Shown: piece by piece, positions 1,716-24,392 of the stretch
How the letters are laid out: the number at the start of each line of letters is the position of its first letter
Numbering within the stretch: the first letter of the stretch is position 1
IMG/VR virus record: IMGVR_UViG_3300045020_000158
Span: 64,001 to 89,293 of that record
Direction: 5' to 3' (one strand)
Length of the DNA: 25,293 nucleotides
Origin: a virus
Taxonomy: Duplodnaviria > Heunggongvirae > Uroviricota > Caudoviricetes
The notes under the pieces: generated by a model
What the model was told of the DNA's origin: nothing
Seen by the model: only the letters and a program-made list of their open reading frames with translations
Database searches by the model: none
Made by a program: the position numbers and the translations under genes

Positions 1716-2650
1716 TTAATCTTCCGCTGGTATTAATGGTATTTGGACATCATCGTCCTTAAACTTTTTCTTAGATTCGAAATAGCAGGCACGAGAGCAA
1801 TTTTTAGGACTTTTTGATTCGGCAACCCATTTCGGCACGTGAAAAATCTTTCCGCAATTGCCACAAGTCAAATCCACGCCTGGGTTGGTCTTTTTTCTAG
1901 CCTCGGCATTTTTTAAAATGCGCTGAGCTTTCTTCACCGGATCAGCCCAAGCTGCCTTAATTCCAGCAACCTGCTTCTCTACAAACTCTTCAGAGCGCTT
2001 TCCATAGAGTTTGCCTCGCTTTGAATCACCGATCTTTTTTCGCCATTCCGGGTTGGCGGCGCGTTCAGCGGCAAAATGCTTCATAGCCTTTTTCATTTCA
2101 GGAGTAGCCATCGCAGCTTTAACTCCAGCCGATATCTTTTCTCTATGTTCTACGCTCCCACTTCGAGAGCGTTTTTCATAATTTCTATGTTCCCACGGCG
2201 CACGCCCATTTATTCGACGTGATTCAAATAATTCTTTGCGAGTCAGGGCTGCCTTTTTAGATTGTTCTCGTAGTCTATTGCGCTCAATTTCTACTGAGAA
2301 TCTTTTTTTCTGACTCTCAGACATTCGTGCTCTGGTTTCATCGGTTATCTGTCGACCAATGATTCCCTCGCCGCCATCCGTCATGTTGTATCCATGTGGA
2401 TATTTAGTACCGAATGCGATAATCGCCTTCTTCTCAAGATCGCATAGATAATCCCATTTATTGGCGATCACGAGAGTTTTTACGATGAAATTCTCAGGTT
2501 TATATTTTCTCAGAGCCGAATAGATAACTCCGTTTTCGCGCCGTCCCAAAGCGTGTTCAACATGCTTCGCAAAACGTTTTCTGCAGTTTTTGTAGTGATC
2601 CCTACATAGCTCTTTCCACTCGATGACGTTAATTGATAGAGACAGCCCAT
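1716..2650 (-). pseudogene. Free-standing GIY-YIG homing endonuclease with a one-base frameshift near 2577-2600
   Basis: ATG at 2650 after an AGGA RBS reads MGCLYQLTSSSGKSYVGITTKTAE, carrying the GIY and YIG-like motifs. The rest of the domain (KRFAKH...LEKKAI...GYNMTDGGEG) is in the -1 frame, ORF 1716..2549. It has a basic C-terminal region with CxxC...CSRAC and is AT-rich relative to its neighbours. Confidence 0.8.
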
Positions 2651-2673
2651 TTTTATTCCTATTTTATGTGTAA

Positions 2674-3414
2674 TTACCAGACATGGTCTGGAGGTCCGAA
2701 ATCACCTCGGAAATCCAGGTGCCCGGATTTTACACTACAATCGACTGCAGCTCTATAACCATATTTTCTTGCGTCGCTCCAAAAATGGAGGTCTTGCGTT
2801 GAGATGCCGCCCTCAGTTTGTGTTTTAAACCAAGGTTTGCGTAAGCGCTCATCTTTAAACATGGAAAGGCGAAACAAACACATTCCCATGCCAAGTCCAC
2901 AAACTTCAACCAAACCACCGTTAGGATCTGGAAGTTGGGGCATGAAGTTAGGTTCCGGAATGGAAGGAGAACCCCAGCCCTGAAAACATCCGCCCGGTCC
3001 CTTACAAAAATACGAGGCGCTCAACGCGGAATACTCCGGATGCTCCTCCATGCGTTCCAACAGTTTCAACAATCCGTCGGATGGAACCAGATTGTCGTGT
3101 TCGAGCGTGAGAATATATTCCCATTGGCTTAAATCCGGGTTCGCCAAGATTTGTTCGATGGCAGTTGAATAAGCAACTCCAACTTCCATTCCCTGAGCAA
3201 GAATCCTAACAACTCCGTTGTTGGGTGGAAAAGCCAGATTCCAATGAGATAAGGCAACCTTAGCCGGAATCAAATCTGCTGCGGGCAGGATAACTACAAT
3301 TCTCTGCCGGCGCCAGGAACCTCCTTTTAAAAGGCGCGCGCGCGTAGCATTGAGATCTTTATTGTGCTCTCCACAAAAATCATCCTGCACAATCAAAGCC
3401 GGTTTATTCGCCAT
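2674..3414 (-). CDS. GT-A fold glycosyltransferase-like protein, 246 aa
   Basis: EYILTLEHDN (DxD-equivalent), CGLGMGMCLFRLSMF, RKPWF, TQDLHF and AVDCSVKSGHLD follow the pattern of phage GT2-like proteins. Confidence 0.8.
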   Translation of the reverse strand: MANKPALIVQDDFCGEHNKDLNATRARLLKGGSWRRQRIVVILPAADLIPAKVALSHWNLAFPPNNGVVRILAQGMEVGVAYSTAIEQILANPDLSQWEYILTLEHDNLVPSDGLLKLLERMEEHPEYSALSASYFCKGPGGCFQGWGSPSIPEPNFMPQLPDPNGGLVEVCGLGMGMCLFRLSMFKDERLRKPWFKTQTEGGISTQDLHFWSDARKYGYRAAVDCSVKSGHLDFRGDFGPPDHVW

Positions 3415-3433
3415 AGTGACTCACAAATATCAA

Positions 3434-4114
3434 TTATTGAACCCACGCAATCGTTGCGGTGTTGGCCGCCGCAATCAGCGCAAATGCCATGACTCCAGTT
3501 TCATTAGCTGTGCCGGCCGTGCCCGGTGCCATGGTCGGTATAGTTCCTCCTGCGCTCGCGTTATATCCTGCAGCCCAAGCTCCGATGCTACCGTTGGTGC
3601 TGGTCAGGGATGCCGGAATCGTAAAGCCACCCGTACCCGCTACAGGCTGCGTATTGGCCGCAGAAGTCGTATCCGTGAGCGCCAACATATAAACTAAGTC
3701 GCCCGCATTACCAACGCTACCACCCGGTGTTAGTGTTTGCCCCACAGTAGGATTCGTCACCAGTTGACTGATAGCTGCTGCTCGCAGAGCCGGAAGCGTG
3801 TCCTCAATGAGGATAGCGACGTAGTCACCCGTGCCGGTGTAGTTCACCGTAAGAGTATGCGTACCCGACGCAACACTACCCGTGGCAATCGCGCAAACCA
3901 GAGCGGTACCACCCGCCGTTAGCGCGAGAACCGGACCAGAAATGGTCCAGATCGTCCCAGCACTGTCAGTGATCGAGGTAATGCCCGGTGTCGTCGTGAT
4001 GTTGAAAAACAGAAATGCGAACAGGCCATGGAGCGCCGTCACCCCGGTCAATGACGGTCCCGAAGTGCCACTGGTATAGAAAGTCCCGAAGTCAACACTC
4101 TGAACGTAACTCAC
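3434..4114 (-). CDS. Ser/Thr/Gly-rich beta-sandwich virion protein with C-terminal TATIAWVQ tag, 226 aa
   Basis: Likely start is GTG at 4114, overlapping the upstream stop (GTGA). The track's longer start at 4258 lies inside the previous gene. Paralogous to 7322..8056 and 8079..8768. Confidence 0.7.
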   Translation of the reverse strand: MSYVQSVDFGTFYTSGTSGPSLTGVTALHGLFAFLFFNITTTPGITSITDSAGTIWTISGPVLALTAGGTALVCAIATGSVASGTHTLTVNYTGTGDYVAILIEDTLPALRAAAISQLVTNPTVGQTLTPGGSVGNAGDLVYMLALTDTTSAANTQPVAGTGGFTIPASLTSTNGSIGAWAAGYNASAGGTIPTMAPGTAGTANETGVMAFALIAAANTATIAWVQ

Positions 4115-5310
4115 GTGAACTGACCCAGTAGCGTTGTAACGTTGCTCGAATTCGTCGCATACAAATACTTTCCGGCCAAAGACTGGTAGAAAACGCCACC
4201 GTGCAGGCGGAATTGCACGGAGCCATTGGTCCACCAACTGGGGCTTTCGATCGTGCACATTGCTTTGCGTGTGCTGCCGGCATAAGTCGCCGAATCGAGT
4301 ATCTCAATACGTGCCGCTGCGCCGACATTTCCCGAACTCGGACCTGCGAGGTAATACTCACTCTGCACCACATAGCAATTGTTATCAACGCTCCAGTTAG
4401 GATCGGTACCGCTCGTATATTGCACAAATCCTGGTAACGTACAGATCTGATAGCCGTTATAGGCGGAACTGCTGGTCACCAGAATCACATTGTTGCTATA
4501 GGCTCCGATCGTCTGGGCGGTCCCATCCCAGACGCCGGTCCAGAGAATATTACCTGTACCGGCGCCTTGGGCTGCATTGATCTGCACCCATTTGCAGTTG
4601 CAGATTGGAACACCGGTTTTAGGATATGGCGTTGAATTCCAAACCCACTCGGTCGCAGTCCCAACGGGTAGATTGCTGGCCAATCCGGGCGCATTGTTGG
4701 ACAACCATTCCCATTGATTCGAGATGGTTTGATTATCCACCGCATTATAAATATCGGTGTCATTGAATCCACCTCCGCCGGTCTTGTCGCAATACCACCA
4801 AGACAGCTTGACCTGTGGAGTGCCCGAAGTTGAAATCGATGTGTAGTTGCAACCCGATGGAAAATAGACAATCTCGGAAACAAATACCTCGGCCATCTGG
4901 GAAGGTGCCGTCACCACGATGCCGCCCCAGCCGCCTCCAGAGCTCACTGTGCCGATGCGGGAATCATTGGACGTGATCATGCCCTGTCCATATGGAAGTC
5001 CTGAGCCACTCACGCAATATGGATAACCGTTGCCATTCGGGACCCACGTGCCACCGGATACCAAGAAATCCGGTCCATTGGCGACAAGACTACCAGGTGT
5101 CTCATTGGCAAAATTCTTATAGGCGATCAACTGAGGCCCGATTGCACCGAAACTGCTGCCACTGATGGTCATCAGTTGGCCTTCGCCGATTCCTGAAGGT
5201 GCGGACAATGAGAAGCCGGACTGCGGAGTGAACCCGATACCGGAGGCGTAGAGATTGCCGGCAGCTCCTGCGATATGCGCACCCACCATGTAAAGGCTGG
5301 GAACGCTCAA
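4111..5310 (-). CDS. Putative virion appendage / carbohydrate-binding protein, 399 aa
   Basis: N-terminal MSVPSLYMVGAHIAG is shared with the GH5 protein. It is followed by an IPT-like segment (GQLMTISGSSFG) and a Trp/Tyr/Asn-rich beta region. The function is inferred. Confidence 0.6.
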   Translation of the reverse strand: MSVPSLYMVGAHIAGAAGNLYASGIGFTPQSGFSLSAPSGIGEGQLMTISGSSFGAIGPQLIAYKNFANETPGSLVANGPDFLVSGGTWVPNGNGYPYCVSGSGLPYGQGMITSNDSRIGTVSSGGGWGGIVVTAPSQMAEVFVSEIVYFPSGCNYTSISTSGTPQVKLSWWYCDKTGGGGFNDTDIYNAVDNQTISNQWEWLSNNAPGLASNLPVGTATEWVWNSTPYPKTGVPICNCKWVQINAAQGAGTGNILWTGVWDGTAQTIGAYSNNVILVTSSSAYNGYQICTLPGFVQYTSGTDPNWSVDNNCYVVQSEYYLAGPSSGNVGAAARIEILDSATYAGSTRKAMCTIESPSWWTNGSVQFRLHGGVFYQSLAGKYLYATNSSNVTTLLGQFT

Positions 5311-17342: not shown

Positions 17343-18122
17343 TCAGTCGGTAACGTGCTTCCAGACTTTGCGTCTGCGGATGTTGGAAACGAGAACGTTG
17401 GAGATTCCATACTTCTGAGCCAGAAGGACTCCTTGCTCAGTGCTTTTACGAATCTCTCTCACGATTTCCTCGGTGATCTTAGTGCCCATTCCTCTTCTGT
17501 GCGGTCCGCCAGGAGAGTTCTTGGCAATATGATCAACCTGAACATGCGCCCATGATTCCCGATTTTTGATGCTCGTTATGGTCGTGGCAGCAACGCCATA
17601 TGACGCGGCGATTTCCGCATAAGGGCGAGGATCAATGAGAATAGCTTTCGCCTGATTCTCAGTAAGTTTCGCTCTATGCGACATTTCGCCGCGCTGCTCT
17701 GTCCTGCGCCGACCTTTTCTCACCATATCATCGTAATTTTCCCGCAACGTGCCCATCCATAAATGGGCTGGATTCACGCATCGTGGATTATCACAAGAAT
17801 GGCAAATGAACATTCCTTTCGGGATTCTAGATTGCGTGTAGAACGCCCAAGAGAATCGGTGAGCCCGGTGATACATTACACCGGCGACCTCGCCTTGAAA
17901 GACGCCGTAATTATCCTTTTCCACGGCGCCTATCCATTCCCAACACTCGCCCACTTCCTTGTACTGCATCTTGAATCGCTGCTCCGCCGATAGACCCCTC
18001 ATTATGTGATTTTTAGTCGCGAACGGGGAGCCATATCGGCGATTGCGGCGCCAATGCTTGTTGCACATTCCCATGCAACGAGCCGGAAGATCACAACCCT
18101 TACACTGGCAGCTTTCCGCCAT
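17343..18122 (-). CDS. Free-standing HNH homing endonuclease (HNH_3 type) with an N-terminal Cys-rich motif and two C-terminal HTH-like repeats, 259 aa
   Basis: CWEWIGA...YGVF...AHRFSW...CHSCDNPRCVNPAHLWMGTLRENYDDM, then AKLTENQ...YGVA.TTI..IKNRESW.HV and TKITEEI...YGIS.VLV..IRRRKVW.HV. The preferred start is ATG 18122. Confidence 0.9.
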   Translation of the reverse strand: MAESCQCKGCDLPARCMGMCNKHWRRNRRYGSPFATKNHIMRGLSAEQRFKMQYKEVGECWEWIGAVEKDNYGVFQGEVAGVMYHRAHRFSWAFYTQSRIPKGMFICHSCDNPRCVNPAHLWMGTLRENYDDMVRKGRRRTEQRGEMSHRAKLTENQAKAILIDPRPYAEIAASYGVAATTITSIKNRESWAHVQVDHIAKNSPGGPHRRGMGTKITEEIVREIRKSTEQGVLLAQKYGISNVLVSNIRRRKVWKHVTD

Positions 18123-18123
18123 A

Positions 18124-18190
18124 CCAACACCAATCAGGTAGCTATCTACTCTCGGCCGAGAGAAGCATAGTTTACGCTGATTGGTGTTGG
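18124..18190 (-). promoter_or_regulatory. Long hairpin covering the HNH ribosome-binding region
   Basis: Perfect 14-bp inverted repeat CCAACACCAATCAG (18124-18137 and 18177-18190) with further inner pairing (CTAT/ATAG, CTCTCG/CGAGAG). It ends 1 nt before the ATG. Confidence 0.8.
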
Positions 18191-18209
18191 ATGAGCAACG
18201 ATTTGGCAC

Positions 18210-18238
18210 AGTATATCAGCCGAAGATGCGAATACCAA
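18210..18238 (-). promoter_or_regulatory. Candidate sigma70-type promoter for the HNH gene
   Basis: TTGGTA (18238-18233), a 17-nt spacer, then TATACT (18215-18210), with an extended -10 TG supplied by the coat stop codon. Confidence 0.5.
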
Positions 18239-20101
18239 GTGAACGATAAAGGCTTGCAGGCCCGTAAAGTACATCGCCATTTAATGTTAACCAAACTCAT
18301 GTTTGGTCAGCCTTGCGGCTGCTCTGGATTTCGCCAGAGATCAGACTATATCTTGGTCCTTTCGGACCGCTCCCGTTTCGGCCTCGTGGCCTACTCTCTT
18401 GCGAGATAGTCGTTGAAGGTTTCTGCATCGCTGCAGACTTCCCTGCTGATTGTCCAATCCTAGGGATTGTCACCCTCTCGGGTACCCTAGGCTCTAAGGA
18501 GTTTCCAGCAATTAGAGAGCTTTAAACTCGGCTTAATGCAACTTTAACCGAGTCGGTTCTGAGTCGTTATTGATGGTAAATTGCGTCACCATCCGGATCG
18601 ACATCCCCACATCCTCGTCGTCATAAGCCCGCGCCGCAAACTCCACGCCCCGAGGCAGTGGCAGATCCGCGAAGGCCAACGCAAACGCGTACTTGTGGAA
18701 CACCAACCCCTGCGGACTCGCCGTGCTGGCGTACGCCGTTCCACCATTGACCGTAATAGTCGTACCGGTGCCGGTCGGGGCTGCCGTGCAGTTCTGGAAC
18801 TGGCCGGCGCTGATGATCGCGTCGCCAATCGTGAGCTGCAGGTTGCCCGAGCTGTCACTGGTATACACACCGGTCAGCGGGTTGAACGTACCGTTCGTCA
18901 AACTCGCCGGTCCGTAGTAGATGCCCGTCGTCGCGGCACCGTTCGGGGGAGTGATAAAGCCACCGGGCGGCAGAATCACGAACTGCTTCAGCGTGCGTCC
19001 ATACTGCTGACGGCTTTGTGGGTTCACCGGATAGATTCCGCTGAACTGGATCACATCGCCGACCTTAACCACACCGGTTGAGCCGGTCCAACCGGTCGTC
19101 AGGATCGTGCCGCTGGCCGCCCACCCGCTGGTGAGGAGTGCCGTACCGGTCGGTGTCGCAGACACCGTGGGCGTACCGCCCTGAACACCGGTCGTGAACG
19201 ACATGATGTTCTGATCCTCCCACCAGTCCAATCCGGCGAACTCCTTCGCCACCATGCCGCGCTCGTTGAACTCCGAGATGCGCGCCTGGGGATTGAACAG
19301 GCCCTTGATGGCATCCGTTGCCGCTGACATGCTGATCGGGTCCAGCACGCAGTTTTTCTCGCCTTCGGCCGGGCAGGCCTCGGACGCCAGCACCGCACGT
19401 GCATCGGAGAAAATCTTGTAGCTGGCAGGCTGGATGCCCGCGGTGCCCAAGGAATTCGCCGTGTTGAGCGTGCAGAACTGTGCAGTGTCGGAATCAACGC
19501 GGTTCGCCACGGTCGCGACCTGGGGTTTCAGAATGCGCTGCTTGAACATGTCCATGGACAGCGCCAGGTCCTGCGTCGTGAACTGCACATCGACGTGGAA
19601 CTGGTAGTTGAGCACCACCGGGACGTACTGCTCGAACGTGTCTTCCACGTTCAGAGGCGGACCATACGTACCGATGTAGCGGGGCGGACGCCGGACGTTA
19701 ACTGTGTTCGAGGTGTTCAGTCAGCTCATGCTGACCCGTCTTGCGACTGCTGTAAGTTTCCCTACAGTCCAGATCATATCTTGCCTCTTTCGAGGCCCCA
19801 CCGTTTCGAGCCCGTTGACTCTACTTCCTTTCGGAATGATCGTTGAGCGTTCCGTCTTGCGACGGCTTCGTTGCTGATTACCCAATCCTGACGATTGTCA
19901 CCTTGCGGTACGTCAGGCTCTAAGGGCGTTCCAGGCAGTTAGATGGATTTTGAATCGGCCGATTCAACCGATTTTGGCGCCGGTCTGGGCGAACTCGTTA
20001 CTGTATTGGCGGTCTACACGATTTGCGATAACGAGTTCGTTTTCAAGCACCACTAACGCCTCGTTAGTGATGTATGAAATTGTCAGAAGTTGTTGAACCA
20101 A
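18216..20101 (-). CDS. Major capsid protein (P22 gp5-like) in three exons: 20101-19967, 19708-18547, 18277-18216; 452 aa after splicing
   Basis: TTG start 6 nt after TAGGAG. Exon 1 reads MVQQLLTISYITNEALVVLENELVIANRVDRQYSNEFAQTGAKIG. The joins read AKIG|NTVNVRRP and EPTR-C-DVLYGPASLYRSLGIRIFG*, restoring both conserved ends of the P22-type coat. Total length is 1359 nt, in frame. Confidence 0.92.
18278..18546 (-). ncRNA. Group I self-splicing intron 2 (269 nt, no ORF; P7.1/P7.2 present, IA-like)
   Basis: The exon ends in U and the intron ends in G. P1 is ACUCGGU/GCCGAGU with a U-G at the splice site. P3 is GCUCUC/GGGAGC and P7 is GACUA/UAGUC. Core elements: AAUUGCUGGAAAC, AAUCAGCAG, UCAACGACUA, AAGAUAUAGUCU. 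The 5' loop UAAAGU is complementary to exon 3 ACUUUA (P10). Confidence 0.93.
19709..19966 (-). ncRNA. Group I self-splicing intron 1 (258 nt, no ORF; P7.1/P7.2 present, IA-like)
   Basis: The exon ends in U and the intron ends in G. P1 is AAUCGGU/GCCGAUU, P3 is UCCAUC/GGUGGG and P7 is GAUCA/UGAUC. Core elements: AACUGCCUGGAAC, AAUCAGCAAC, UCAACGAUCA, AAGAUAUGAUCU. Multiple GNRA-capped stems. Confidence 0.93.
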
Positions 20102-20115
20102 GTAAAGCTCCTAAG

Positions 20116-20638
20116 TTAGATGTTAACTAAGTGAGCTGAATGATTTACGTGGCCGTTTAGGATCAAAGAAATCAAAGGACGGCTAACACCAAACCAGTCA
20201 GCTATCTGCTGTTGAGTGCAGCCAGAAGCGCGAAGATCACAGATTCTCTCGCCGTCCGTAGCGTTGAGTTTCTGCCATCTCGTGCCTTGACGCCATGCAT
20301 GGCGTCCCTTAGATACCATATCTCGGGAGTTATCCATTGCCGTACCGAGGAACAAATGGTCAGGATTAATGCAACGAGGAACATCGCATTTGTGTAAAAC
20401 CATTTTGTCAGAGGGAAGATCGCCATTTGCAAGAACCCATGCAACACGATGGGCATATCTCATATATTGCCCCTTGCTGAGTAGGATTTGACCATATCCC
20501 CTATCATTAACCGTTCCATTCCAAATAATGCACCCGTTTTCATTAGGGGGGGCCGTATTTGGTATGAAAGCGCTTAATGCAACGATCTGGAATATCCGAC
20601 CGCTTAAGAATGCGGGCGAATCGATTGCGATTAGTCAC
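20116..20638 (-). CDS. Free-standing HNH homing endonuclease split by a +1 frameshift at CCC-TAA (20552-20543); about 173 aa if read through
   Basis: GTG at 20638, 8 nt after GGAG, reads MTNRNRF...KRFHTKYGPP*. The +1 frame continues NENGCIIWNG...GYGQI...YAHRVAW...VLHKCDVPRCINPDHLFLGTAMDNSRDM plus a C-terminal HTH. The track ORF 20116..20463 lacks the N-terminal part of the domain. Confidence 0.85.
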
Positions 20639-20679: not shown

Positions 20680-21894
20680 CTACCGCCGCTTACTCCGCGC
20701 CTTCTCCCTCTCATAAGCCCGCAGCTGTTTGAAATCCATCTTCGACGGATCTGTCACCACGGTCCCGGAGCCTTGCGCAGAAATCGGCGTGATCGGTGGA
20801 GGCGCTCCACCACGCTCGGGTGCTTTCGGTGCAGGAGCCGGCGGCACGACTGCGACAGGCGCAGGCGCAACCGCTGGAGCTGCGGGAGCCGGCGGCGGGA
20901 TCGGCGTGGGAGCCGGGGTAACCGCTGCAGGCTTCTCGAAAGTCAATTCGAGCTTGCCTATCTCGGCTAAAGCCTTGACAGGCGAGAGTTGTCGGATCTT
21001 GTCCGTGAAATCTGGGTGATTCGCCATGTGATAGGTGATATCAGCCCCGTAATCGCTCTCGGTGATGAACTGGAGCACCGCATCAGGAACCAAAACATCG
21101 GTCGCACCCACAACTTCCAGGAAATCGGGGTATTTGATCTGAGCTTTTTCAAGTCGGGCCTTGAATTTGGCTTCGACTTCGGCACGCTCCGCTGCCTGTT
21201 TTTCTTGCGCGATTTTGGCGCGCTCCTGCTCAGCCGCGTGCGTGGCTTTCGCATCTGCAAACTGGTCTTTCGCGTCGATGAATTTACTCCAATCGACGAC
21301 GCCCTCTGGGGAGGTGAATTCCTTGATGTCGGGCGCTTTCGGCGGTTCGGGCGCAGCCGGCGCGGCCAGTGCAGGTTTCTGAGCCTTCGCAGCCTGCAAT
21401 TCGCGCTCGAGCTCCGCGGCGCGGGCCTCAGCCAGCCGGGCACGCTCGAATTGGTTCTTTGCGAACGCCTCAGCGTCCTTAGCTTCTTCTTCCGCCGTCT
21501 TCCGCAGCGCCTCTTCCTGCTTCGCGATCTTATGCCGCTTGCCCACCAGGCGCCGCACGCGCTCCGTCTCATCCGGCGCGGTCAGAATCCACTCTTTGTC
21601 GGATTCGGAGATGCCGTGGTAGGGGTCCGGCAGGTCATCGGGGTCAACCAGAGGGGCTGGCGGCGCAACGGCCGCGGGAGCCTCTGGCGCGGGCGCAGGC
21701 GGTACTTCCGGCGGTGTGCCGGCAGTCGCGTCGGACTGCACGGGAGGCGCTGGCGGCGGCGCTACAACCACCACAGTCTCGACCGGCGTTGCGCCCGGTA
21801 GTGACTTATCGCCCTTCACGTGGTTTTTGACCTCGGTGACGGCGCCGGTTTCAATGAAATCTTGCAACCCAGTCGAAGTCACAACCTTACCCAT
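20680..21894 (-). CDS. Capsid scaffolding protein, about 404 aa
   Basis: Sits between portal and coat. Pro/Ala-rich linkers flank an E/K/A/R-rich coiled coil, and there is a short basic C-terminal helix (DPSKMDFKQLRAYEREKARSKRR). ATG 21894 is preferred over the track's 21927. Confidence 0.85.
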   Translation of the reverse strand: MGKVVTSTGLQDFIETGAVTEVKNHVKGDKSLPGATPVETVVVVAPPPAPPVQSDATAGTPPEVPPAPAPEAPAAVAPPAPLVDPDDLPDPYHGISESDKEWILTAPDETERVRRLVGKRHKIAKQEEALRKTAEEEAKDAEAFAKNQFERARLAEARAAELERELQAAKAQKPALAAPAAPEPPKAPDIKEFTSPEGVVDWSKFIDAKDQFADAKATHAAEQERAKIAQEKQAAERAEVEAKFKARLEKAQIKYPDFLEVVGATDVLVPDAVLQFITESDYGADITYHMANHPDFTDKIRQLSPVKALAEIGKLELTFEKPAAVTPAPTPIPPPAPAAPAVAPAPVAVVPPAPAPKAPERGGAPPPITPISAQGSGTVVTDPSKMDFKQLRAYEREKARSKRR

Positions 21895-22072
21895 GGACGC
21901 TATCTCGCGGCATGTCGGCCAATGCACGTCCTACGCATCGTTGACACGGACCGTCACCATTGGCTTTTGCCACCTCACCGAACGTCACACCAATGCCGAG
22001 ATATTTCTTGATCGTCACGATGAAACGACGACCAAGATTCATGGAAAACCGATTCCCATTAGACAATTTCAT
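21887..22072 (-). CDS. Small hypothetical protein, 61 aa
   Basis: Fills the gap and overlaps the scaffold start. No recognisable motif. Confidence 0.35.
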   Translation of the reverse strand: MKLSNGNRFSMNLGRRFIVTIKKYLGIGVTFGEVAKANGDGPCQRCVGRALADMPRDSVHG

Positions 22073-22101: not shown

Positions 22102-22254
22102 TTATTCTAAAATTTCCACCTGCCACTTTTTCGAATGGCAGTATTCTTTAATCTGACTCAGTGTCCAGCCCTTCATATAATTTATAATCGGAGCACAACG
22201 ACCGCCGCGGACAATTCCTGCGACGAAATGCGGGGCCGAAATGCGCAGCATCAT
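22102..22254 (-). CDS. Small phage hypothetical protein, 50 aa (below the ORF-track cutoff)
   Basis: ATGA overlap with the portal stop. MMLRISAPHFVAGIVRGGRCAPIINYMKGWTLSQIKEYCHSKKWQVEILE. Confidence 0.65.
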   Translation of the reverse strand: MMLRISAPHFVAGIVRGGRCAPIINYMKGWTLSQIKEYCHSKKWQVEILE

Positions 22255-24392
22255 GCTTTCTCTGCCTTCTCAGCCGCTCGCGCTGTTTCCCGCGCCAGAT
22301 TCAATTCATGCCCGGCCTGCGCATGCGTATCCAGCAGTTTGCCGCCGACACTGATTTCGGTCTCCGCAATACCAGCCTGTGCGCCGATATGTGCTTTGGT
22401 CAATTCCGTGTGCGACTTCAGCGCCGCATCGTTCGCCTTGACCTGCGTCTGCTGATCGATCTTGTATTTTTCCAAGGCGATCCAGTTATTCTCAATGTTG
22501 GTCTTGAGTTTGATTTCCTGCTCAAGCCCTTGAATCTTCTGCGTGGCCTGTTGCAATTGTTGCTGCATGGCCGTAACGATGCCCTGCGCCTGCTTCGGCA
22601 GCGACTTGATCGCCTTGTCGAGTCCTTGCGGCGTAAGCGGCGCGAGGCGATCGGCGAGGTCAGATGCACCGGGCCAGTCCATGTTGCGCACCACGAGATC
22701 GGCACCAACTTTCACGACGGGCTCAGCCAACGGCGTGCGCATGAGATCCAACATCGCATCGACGGACTCAAGACGCTTTGTCTCATATCCAGGTCCGGTA
22801 TCCATCACCACATCATAGCGGCCGACCGTCAGGTCATTCTTGATCTTTATGATGCTCGGGTCCGTCGACTGTGCCTGCGCTTCCTCGTCAGGTTGATTGA
22901 TGCCGACCACTTCCGGCACACCATCCTCGCCAATGATGCGTTGCATGCGCGCTTCGCTGTAGTAGTACGGAATCAGGTCGAGAAGGATACGGCCCGTATG
23001 GCAGATCGACTTGGTCTGATTGTCGTAATACTGAAAGTGACCGATATCGGAGAGTGCTTGTCGCGCGCGCAGGGCTTTGCCAGAGACGACCTGACCGGGC
23101 GCGTCCTGGCCTGGCTCGTGGGGCATCCCGGCGAGGATCATCAGATCTTTCAGCGCAGATTCCGCGGCAGCAACAAATCCGGCCGGAATCGCAACAGGCT
23201 CAACGCGCTGCGGAGGTGGCAACGGCGTCTTGCTACCATCCGGTTGTTCAATAAAATCCGGTGTGTAGGTCAGCTTGGAATAGGGAACTTGATTGGCATC
23301 ATTCCATTCCGGATGACCATCAAACTGGTTGGTTGTTCCAACCCACGGCGCACGCGGAGCCAGCGCGATAACTTCTGTCTCACAAGTACGCCAATAATCA
23401 TATGCTCTTTGCGTATCAATCAAATCGCGCACCATTCCCTTGCGCTTGATCTGACCATTGATATCCATCACGTTACCTTCGCAACGCACGACAGGAATCC
23501 ATTTCCCCGGCAAATTCACCGACTCCACAACGGTTGATCCATTCAACCGATGCCATTCCAACTGCCGCCGATAAGAAGGACGCCGGATCGGATTGCCGCG
23601 CAAATTCGTCGCGACCTGATCGCCTTCCTTCATGTCGTTTTCAAAGACGTTCCGACCATCCGTCAGTTTGACCAGCCACGCTTTCTTTTTGACGATACGA
23701 AAATATTCCGCGAGCCGGATTTCCTCCTTGTCCATCCAATCCAGAGCCATGTCCCCTTGGCCGCCTTCGCGCCATTCCGTCTCCACTTCATCCGGATACT
23801 TGCGCTCAAACTCCGAGCGCTTCATTTTCTCCGTAATGATGCACCACTCGGCATCCTCGCCGGCCGGCAGAATGGATGCCGGATCCATGTAGACCGTGAA
23901 GGGATTGCGGATGGGCGCAATCTTCAGCTCCTGCTCGAAACTGTCTTCCGAGATATACTCCGACAGCACGCGCCAATAACCCCAGCCCATCTTGACCGCG
24001 GACTCACCGCCGATGTCATAGGCCGTCGCGCCTTCTGAGCGCTGCTCGATATGCCGGATCAGTCCGCCGATCTTCTGTGCGATATCCACATCCGCGCCGT
24101 CGCTGACCGGATGCACCTTGATGCGCGGCCGCTGCATGCGCATGTTGTTCACCACACGCTTGACCATCGCGCGCGTGTGATTGATGGTCAATGTCGGACG
24201 GCGAGAGACCTTGCGTTGATTGTAGATATCCGTGGGCCATTGCTGGCCATCTTCGAATTCGAGATCGATGACCGCGGCCTGGCGGTTGGCGCCTTCGGAC
24301 TGTTCGCCGATCGACAGGCGTTCGTTGGCTTCTCTGAAAATTTCGTCGTTGGTCGTTGCGGGCTGATGAGATTCAGCCGGGATTACGGGCAA
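22251..24392 (-). CDS. Portal protein (P22 gp1-like), 713 aa
   Basis: DLEFEDGQQWP...RPTLTINHT...VVNNMRMQRPRIKVHP, GWGYWRV, KGMVRDLIDTQRAYDYW and GRYDVVMDTGPGYETKR, with a C-terminal coiled coil. TTG start after GGAG. Confidence 0.93.
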   Translation of the reverse strand: MPVIPAESHQPATTNDEIFREANERLSIGEQSEGANRQAAVIDLEFEDGQQWPTDIYNQRKVSRRPTLTINHTRAMVKRVVNNMRMQRPRIKVHPVSDGADVDIAQKIGGLIRHIEQRSEGATAYDIGGESAVKMGWGYWRVLSEYISEDSFEQELKIAPIRNPFTVYMDPASILPAGEDAEWCIITEKMKRSEFERKYPDEVETEWREGGQGDMALDWMDKEEIRLAEYFRIVKKKAWLVKLTDGRNVFENDMKEGDQVATNLRGNPIRRPSYRRQLEWHRLNGSTVVESVNLPGKWIPVVRCEGNVMDINGQIKRKGMVRDLIDTQRAYDYWRTCETEVIALAPRAPWVGTTNQFDGHPEWNDANQVPYSKLTYTPDFIEQPDGSKTPLPPPQRVEPVAIPAGFVAAAESALKDLMILAGMPHEPGQDAPGQVVSGKALRARQALSDIGHFQYYDNQTKSICHTGRILLDLIPYYYSEARMQRIIGEDGVPEVVGINQPDEEAQAQSTDPSIIKIKNDLTVGRYDVVMDTGPGYETKRLESVDAMLDLMRTPLAEPVVKVGADLVVRNMDWPGASDLADRLAPLTPQGLDKAIKSLPKQAQGIVTAMQQQLQQATQKIQGLEQEIKLKTNIENNWIALEKYKIDQQTQVKANDAALKSHTELTKAHIGAQAGIAETEISVGGKLLDTHAQAGHELNLARETARAAEKAEKA

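Follow-up and report, generated by a model that had tools for sequence, protein, structure and literature searches.

Two predicted group I introns in the P22-type coat gene of an uncultured phage and the HNH genes that flank it

Group I introns are already known from capsid genes of phages. The capsid gene of mycobacteriophage LittleE contains a group I intron whose splicing was shown experimentally (PMC3706429), and, as cited in the same paper, lactococcal phage Tuc2009 has an intron in a capsid subunit gene. In addition, a single phage gene can hold several introns, since three group I introns were described in orf142 of Staphylococcus phage Twort (Landthaler and Shub 1999, cited in PMC6669764). 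Furthermore, collaborative homing, in which an ORF-less intron is combined with a free-standing endonuclease, was reported for the psbA gene of cyanophage S-PM2 and for the DNA polymerase gene of T7-like phages (PMC3984707), and the endonuclease of the S-PM2 psbA case is F-CphI (PMC6083498). Capsid-gene introns, multi-intron phage genes and collaborative homing are all already published. What the locus described here adds is a doubled intron-plus-HNH layout and a natural series of relatives, and it is no new kind of element.

The locus lies in a 25,293-nucleotide stretch (hereafter the window), which makes up the final 25 kb of an IMG/VR record (89,293 bp) from an uncultured phage. As in LittleE and Tuc2009, the predicted introns interrupt the gene of the most abundant virion protein, the 5′ exons end in U and the introns in G, and close relatives have intron-less alleles. 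However, in LittleE a single 819-bp intron, which contains an HNH gene, interrupts the gene of an HK97-type capsid, whereas here there are two short ORF-less introns in a gene for a P22-type coat, the HNH genes lie outside that gene, and we infer splicing from sequence. As in Twort orf142, several introns in one phage gene mean that expression needs several splicing events, although the gene and the host are different. The arrangement is that of collaborative homing, with ORF-less introns and with free-standing HNH_3 genes adjoining the interrupted gene. Like the S-PM2 and T7-like systems, it places ORF-less introns at a distance of about 150 nt from free-standing homing-endonuclease genes on the flanks of the interrupted gene, and the intervening exon looks co-converted. 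Unlike those systems, the layout is doubled, with one HNH gene per gene end, cleavage at the insertion sites is putative, and relatives show the HNH gene and the intron each without the other.

Coat gene and its homologues

The minus strand of the window carries a P22-like morphogenesis block that includes a portal gene (22251-24392, minus strand; PF16510, 471 bits) and a scaffold gene (20680-21927, minus strand). The coat gene, on the same strand, is in three pieces. Exon 1 (19967-20101) starts with a TTG at 20101, has 45 codons and ends in ...AAAAUCGGU; an AGGAG stands 6 nt 5′ of the TTG, at 20112-20108. Exon 2 (18547-19708) holds 387 codons and the first base of codon 433, and exon 3 (18216-18277) holds the rest of Cys433, 19 codons and a TGA. 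Removal of 19709-19966 and 18278-18546 gives a CDS of 1359 nt that encodes a P22-type coat of 452 aa, with ...AAAATCGGT/AACACAG... and ...GACTCGGT/GCGATGT... as the predicted ligated-exon junctions.

The coordinates and frames agree with those of an earlier reading made from the sequence only, which had proposed that removing the two inserts restores this protein. It was also right that the first codon of intron 1 is TGA, so that unspliced RNA would give a 45-aa product. For retention of intron 2, the ending LKLH followed by a stop was found as described (...R-LKLH by read-through), but 20 C-terminal residues (C433-G452) are lost, not 21. The two peptides it named for detection, IGNTVNVR and CDVLYGPASLYR, are genuine tryptic peptides of the predicted spliced product. 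A search for a second coat gene found none in the 89-kb genome, whose completeness is 100% according to CheckV; thus coat production would have to depend on the removal of both inserts. Gene callers would be expected to return a coat cut short at either end (a 371-aa ORF at 18533-19648), and to do the same in intron-bearing relatives, whereas exon-aware calling yields the full 452-aa coat.

The homology of the coat extends across all three exons. Exon 2 matched PF11651 (P22 coat) with 80.9 bits, and exon 1 alone matched positions 5-41 of this family with 20.4 bits (cut-off 24). The uninterrupted coat of relative L007, which is 86% identical, covers positions 8-422 of 423 in PF11651, and membership in this family holds over the whole protein, both termini included. 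Exon 2 shares 52.5% identity with the major capsid protein of Xanthomonas phage PBR31. The spliced coat aligns end to end with the uninterrupted coats of PBR31 and MW202520, and this alignment is gapless at both junctions (GAKIG/NTVNVR and PTR/C/DVLYG). In addition, 80 related loci were detected in IMG/VR, with an exon 2 identity of 69-98% in 79 and 32% in one outlier. In about 70 of these 80, the counterparts of the three exons run on without interruption, the gap being exactly 0 at either junction. Exon 1 aligns to residues 1-45 of the uninterrupted coats and exon 3 to the C-terminus ...DVLYGPASLYR... that is common to all homologues. The earlier reading had allowed that the sequences of exons 1 and 3 might be absent from homologous coats; we found both in them. 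Meanwhile, the 3.2-kb region gave no match when compared by megablast with GenBank phages; the phage has no close cultured relative.

The TTG start is consistent with the family, in which each of GTG, ATG and TTG is found as the codon here, following a Shine-Dalgarno sequence. In eight relatives the first codon at the position of the TTG is ATT or ATC, behind a good AGGAG (among them L005 at 3606, L007 at 392, L008 at 629, L012, L043, L055 and L062); these are rare starts for what is presumably the most abundant virion protein. Many of the related contigs with a similar coat are 37-42 kb long, whereas the record of the window has 89 kb and that of L005 73 kb. Either phages whose genomes differ widely in size have this coat module in common, or the long records are composites.

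The two inserts and their predicted fold

Intron 1 (19709-19966, minus strand) is 258 nt long and occupies site B, between CDS nt 135/136. Intron 2 (18278-18546, minus strand) is 269 nt long and occupies site C, between CDS nt 1297/1298, in phase 1. The last base of both is G, and this G sits exactly where colinearity with the uninterrupted coats is restored. In the covariance-model check that had been suggested for both inserts, the outcome was divided. Against RF00028, whose gathering cut-off is 50 bits, intron 2 scored 70 bits (E = 4e-16) with the whole model covered, whereas intron 1 stayed below the cut-off and surfaced only in E-value mode (30.7 bits, E = 2.4e-5), in an alignment that misplaces P1/P2 into exon 1. 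The homologue of intron 1 at the same site in relative L013 reached 69.3 bits, and intron 1 itself scored 299.9 bits against R1, a model of our own.

The core of a group I intron could be mapped by hand in both inserts. In P1, the exon end AAUCGGU pairs with the internal guide sequence (IGS) GCCGAUU in intron 1, and ACUCGGU pairs with GCCGAGU in intron 2, both ending in U.G; this U.G at the 5′ splice site showed no change in a manual comparison of five full-length members of the family. Further mapped elements were J3/4 (UAA), P4, P5, P6, a P5a/P5b extension, J6/7 (CAAC), P3′, P8, J8/7 (AAGAUA), P9, P9.1 and P9.2, and P3 and P7 form a pseudoknot. The three compensatory helices quoted from sequence alone are all present and correspond to P7 (GAUCA/UGAUC in intron 1, GACUA/UAGUC in intron 2), P5a (CCUGACG/CGUCAGG and CCUAGGG/CCCUAGG) and P8 (GCCUC/GAGGC and GGUCC/GGACC). 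P7 combines an invariant G-C and an invariant A-U pair with covariation at pairs 3 and 4. Between P7 and the 3′ strand of P3, intron 1 has UUCC-GAAA-GGAA and GAGUC..GGCUC, and intron 2 has UCUC-GCAA-GAGA and GGCC-ACGA-GGCC; the first of these helices, P7.1, shows compensatory changes. Judged by this P7.1/P7.2 pair in the predicted fold, both introns belong to subgroup IA.

Known phage introns of the IA2 type include those of T4 td, nrdB and nrdD and the DNA polymerase introns of SPO1-like phages. The two introns share with them P7.1/P7.2 between P7 and P3′ and a compact core. They differ in the P5a/P5b extension with an ACAAU bulge, in the host gene, and in P2, a helix that could not be mapped by hand in either intron. 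Among cultured phages, parts of intron 2 resemble known introns, one of them (86% similarity over 87 nt) in Pseudomonas phage KIL1, whose portal gene carries an annotation as a join of two segments. The introns of Acinetobacter phages and of Bacillus phiNIT1-like phages showed 69-77% partial nucleotide similarity.

Comparison of the introns with each other also points to a conserved fold. Introns 1 and 2 are 67% identical and keep every helix. RNAalifold recovered P1, P3-P6a, P7.1, P8 and P9-P9.2, and 22 of 69 pairs were compensatory between the two window introns alone. When nine related introns were aligned, 95.3% of cells paired, compared with 74.5% after shuffling and 33-44% after sliding; the alignment had been fitted to a model derived from introns 1 and 2 of the window, which favours the structure, and the margin is large. 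Among the nine, 49 of 69 pairs changed on both sides, a number that none of 500 shuffles reached. The claim that the inserts are related group I introns with compensatory changes is supported by the covariance model (above the cut-off for intron 2), the hand-mapped core and the covariation. No endonuclease ORF was found in the introns, neither of which has a sense ORF of more than 58 aa. A search of the 89-kb genome with the two-intron model returned only the two copies of the window; five other contigs contained related introns.

We consider it highly probable that both inserts are genuine group I introns and that both have to be removed for the coat to be made. After transcription, each intron would fold into a ribozyme core (P3-P9 with P7.1/P7.2), and its internal guide would pair with the 7 nt that end the upstream exon, the final pair being U.G. 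Two guanosine-dependent transesterifications would then remove the intron up to its terminal G, and the 452-aa coat would be encoded by the doubly spliced mRNA only. Splicing of both inserts is predicted from the comparison of sequences. Exon skipping has reportedly been seen in Twort. In the window, the guides of the two introns differ by one base (GCCGAUU and GCCGAGU), and skipping of exon 2 is therefore predicted here.

The coat gene could instead be a pseudogene of a defective phage, in which the inserts, as introns in decay, have lost the ability to splice. The score of intron 1 under the Rfam cut-off, the upstream HNH gene without a canonical start (see below) and a frameshift in exon 2 of the related contig L013 would agree with this. 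However, all exons are intact and in phase, and they are under purifying selection, with 128 nucleotide differences but only 10 amino acid differences between the window and L005. Moreover, compensatory changes keep all core helices, and this is the sole coat gene of a genome that CheckV rates as complete. We regard decay as very improbable.

It is scarcely credible that the inserts are bypassed or removed in another way (an intein, a translational hop or a frameshift) or are assembly artefacts; a search of our results for support of such explanations found none. Translation would meet in-frame stops immediately, namely the TGA after exon 1 and the stop after LKLH past exon 2, and the covariance-model matches favour introns. 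Furthermore, independent metagenomes contain the same introns at identical sites, which argues against an artefact of assembly.

Intron variation among relatives

Most relatives have no introns in the coat gene, about 70 of them carrying intron-less alleles, and presence or absence varies at four sites in the coat clade of the window and at one in a distant coat. L005 and L006 (98% amino acid identity) have a 260-nt intron at site A (CDS nt 97/98) that is 81% identical to intron 1 of the window, and their sites B and C are empty. L013 has introns at sites A, B and C, with Rfam scores of 59.7, 69.3 and 27.9 bits, and its site B intron is 78% identical to intron 1. At site A, L027 and L071 have a 694-nt intron with a 179-aa ORF; this ORF had no match in Pfam, and PHROGs identified it as HNH/endonuclease VII-like (PHROG 2255, 1.5e-15). 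L046 has a 202-nt intron at site A, and L079 has a 220-nt insert at site C′ (nt 1290/1291). RF00028 gave no match in the inserts of L079, L046 and MW202674, whereas the intron of L046 was recovered by our own model with 24 bits.

The two window introns, the site A intron of L005 and the site B intron of L013 are 67-81% identical and therefore represent one lineage at three sites. The guide sequence covaries with the upstream exon at these sites, being GCUGACG at site A, GCCGAUU at site B and GCCGAGU at site C. In addition, the 5′ exons at the three sites of this lineage all end in UC(G/A)GU, and TCGGT occurs three times in the CDS of the window, two of these occurrences holding introns. This pattern would fit a choice of site by guide pairing and is only suggestive. 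With one lineage at three sites and most relatives intron-less, the introns seem to be, or recently to have been, mobile. Within this phage clade the coat gene is a hot-spot for introns, whose presence varies naturally among relatives, and these relatives offer a comparative system for studying the movement of ORF-less introns and the origin of cooperation between introns and homing endonucleases.

A second compact group-I-like family of about 220-260 nt was seen in L079 (5159-5378) and in L002 (MW202674.1, about 1625-1887). In MW202674, a distant coat, the insert follows ...HVD and GenBank annotates two CDS. Both inserts have the exon-end U, the terminal G and the P7 strands GACUA/UAGUC, with 14 compensatory pairs between them. 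Meanwhile, the three-intron coat gene of L013 (IMGVR_UViG_3300037827_000128) spans 2250-4651. Its third intron contains about 400 additional nt and runs off the end of the contig, and its exon 2 has a 1-nt frameshift near codon 108, which is either an assembly error or the mark of a dead gene.

Flanking HNH genes and the proposed spread

The only two HNH_3 genes of the genome above the cut-off flank the coat gene, both on the minus strand. The upstream gene (20116-20634) matched PF13392 with 55 bits and PHROG 1872 with 1e-29. Its stop is 3 nt before the Shine-Dalgarno sequence of the coat gene, 14 nt from the coat and about 150 nt from the site of intron 1. The downstream gene (17343-18209) matched PF13392 with 27.8 bits and PHROG 1872 with 4e-27. 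Its likely ATG at 18122 lies about 93-95 nt past the coat stop and about 155 nt from the site of intron 2. Homologues of the downstream gene occupy the same position in L005, L018, L077 and L079. HNH genes also stand at the same intergenic positions beside the intron-less coats of L008, L018, L077 and L069, and neither flanking gene is present in PBR31 and most relatives.

The association between introns and HNH genes was tested on 55 de-duplicated loci with full flanks. An adjacent HNH gene was found at four of the five intron-bearing coats and at three of the 50 intron-less ones (Fisher p = 5e-4, a value that rests on few loci and ignores phylogenetic relatedness), and the fifth intron-bearing coat has an HNH gene inside its intron. 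Base composition and divergence show a pattern of their own. The nucleotide differences between the window and L005 cluster in nt 1-120 (25) and nt 1291-1359 (26) and are almost all synonymous. The GC content is 46.7% in exon 1, 50% in exon 3 and 61.4% in exon 2, compared with 49-53% in the introns and 47-51% in the HNH genes. Exon 3 is thus 11 points under exon 2, whereas in 60 uninterrupted relatives its equivalent averages 2 points above exon 2, and a GC as low as in the window was seen only in L018 and L077, both with the same downstream HNH gene. With differences clustered at the ends and a donor-like GC, the ends of the coat gene therefore look co-converted with HNH cassettes, and the introns fall inside these tracts.

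Nevertheless, the link between HNH gene and intron is loose rather than strict. In L005 the downstream HNH gene is present and the site C intron absent, its site A intron being 1.2 kb away. L018 and L077 have the HNH gene and no intron, and L013 has three introns and no HNH gene in the 2.2 kb upstream. Among intron-less alleles, no clear pattern of features at site C separated those with the HNH gene from those without.

Our best guess, with roughly even prospects of being right, is that the introns spread by trans-homing via the two flanking HNH genes. The free-standing endonucleases would cut intron-less alleles near the ends of the gene, and in the repair that follows, the nearby intron would be copied along with the HNH gene and the short terminal exon, a route known as collaborative homing. 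The introns might instead be immobile relics or move by reverse splicing alone, the HNH genes being independent selfish elements that favour the conserved coat gene. This alternative concerns the mobility only and not the splicing, and we take it as a serious possibility of less than even probability. The pairing of introns and HNH genes by site is imperfect, as the HNH genes beside the intron-less coats of L008, L018, L077 and L069 illustrate, and the UC(G/A)GU exon ends, with two of three TCGGT pentamers occupied, fit a guide-directed choice of site. On the other side, all intron-bearing coats with full flanks have an HNH gene either adjacent or within the intron, and the low GC and excess synonymous divergence of the short exons are what joint co-conversion would be expected to leave.

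Trans-homing could also be joined with reverse splicing in one more tentative scheme, which we think rather unlikely as a whole. One ORF-less lineage would have colonised the coat sites nt 97/98, 135/136 and 1297/1298, which end in UC(G/A)GU, by reverse splicing via guide pairing. Its later spread in trans would have been the work of two different HNH endonucleases, both free-standing and one per gene end, with co-conversion tracts carrying the terminal exon and the intron. If this were true, the locus would be a doubled collaborative-homing unit, with several intermediate stages preserved in about 80 natural relatives.

The frame of the upstream HNH gene is open to 20634, and its first ATG, GTG or TTG is at 20463. 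The region between them (20463-20634) encodes the N-terminus NGCIIWNG..GYG in frame, with no ATG, GTG or TTG before it, and a start at 20463 would delete this conserved part. The similarity to the homologue in L008 (52% identity over 160 aa) includes the region 5′ of the ATG. The gene could use a rare start, could be expressed by recoding from a 31-codon ORF at 20543-20638, or could be in decay. Meanwhile, the coat stop is followed by a hairpin (18124-18190, minus strand) with perfect 14-bp arms, CCAACACCAATCAG and CTGATTGGTGTTGG, which ends 1 nt before the ATG of the downstream HNH gene. The hairpin may limit translation of the HNH gene or terminate the coat transcript.
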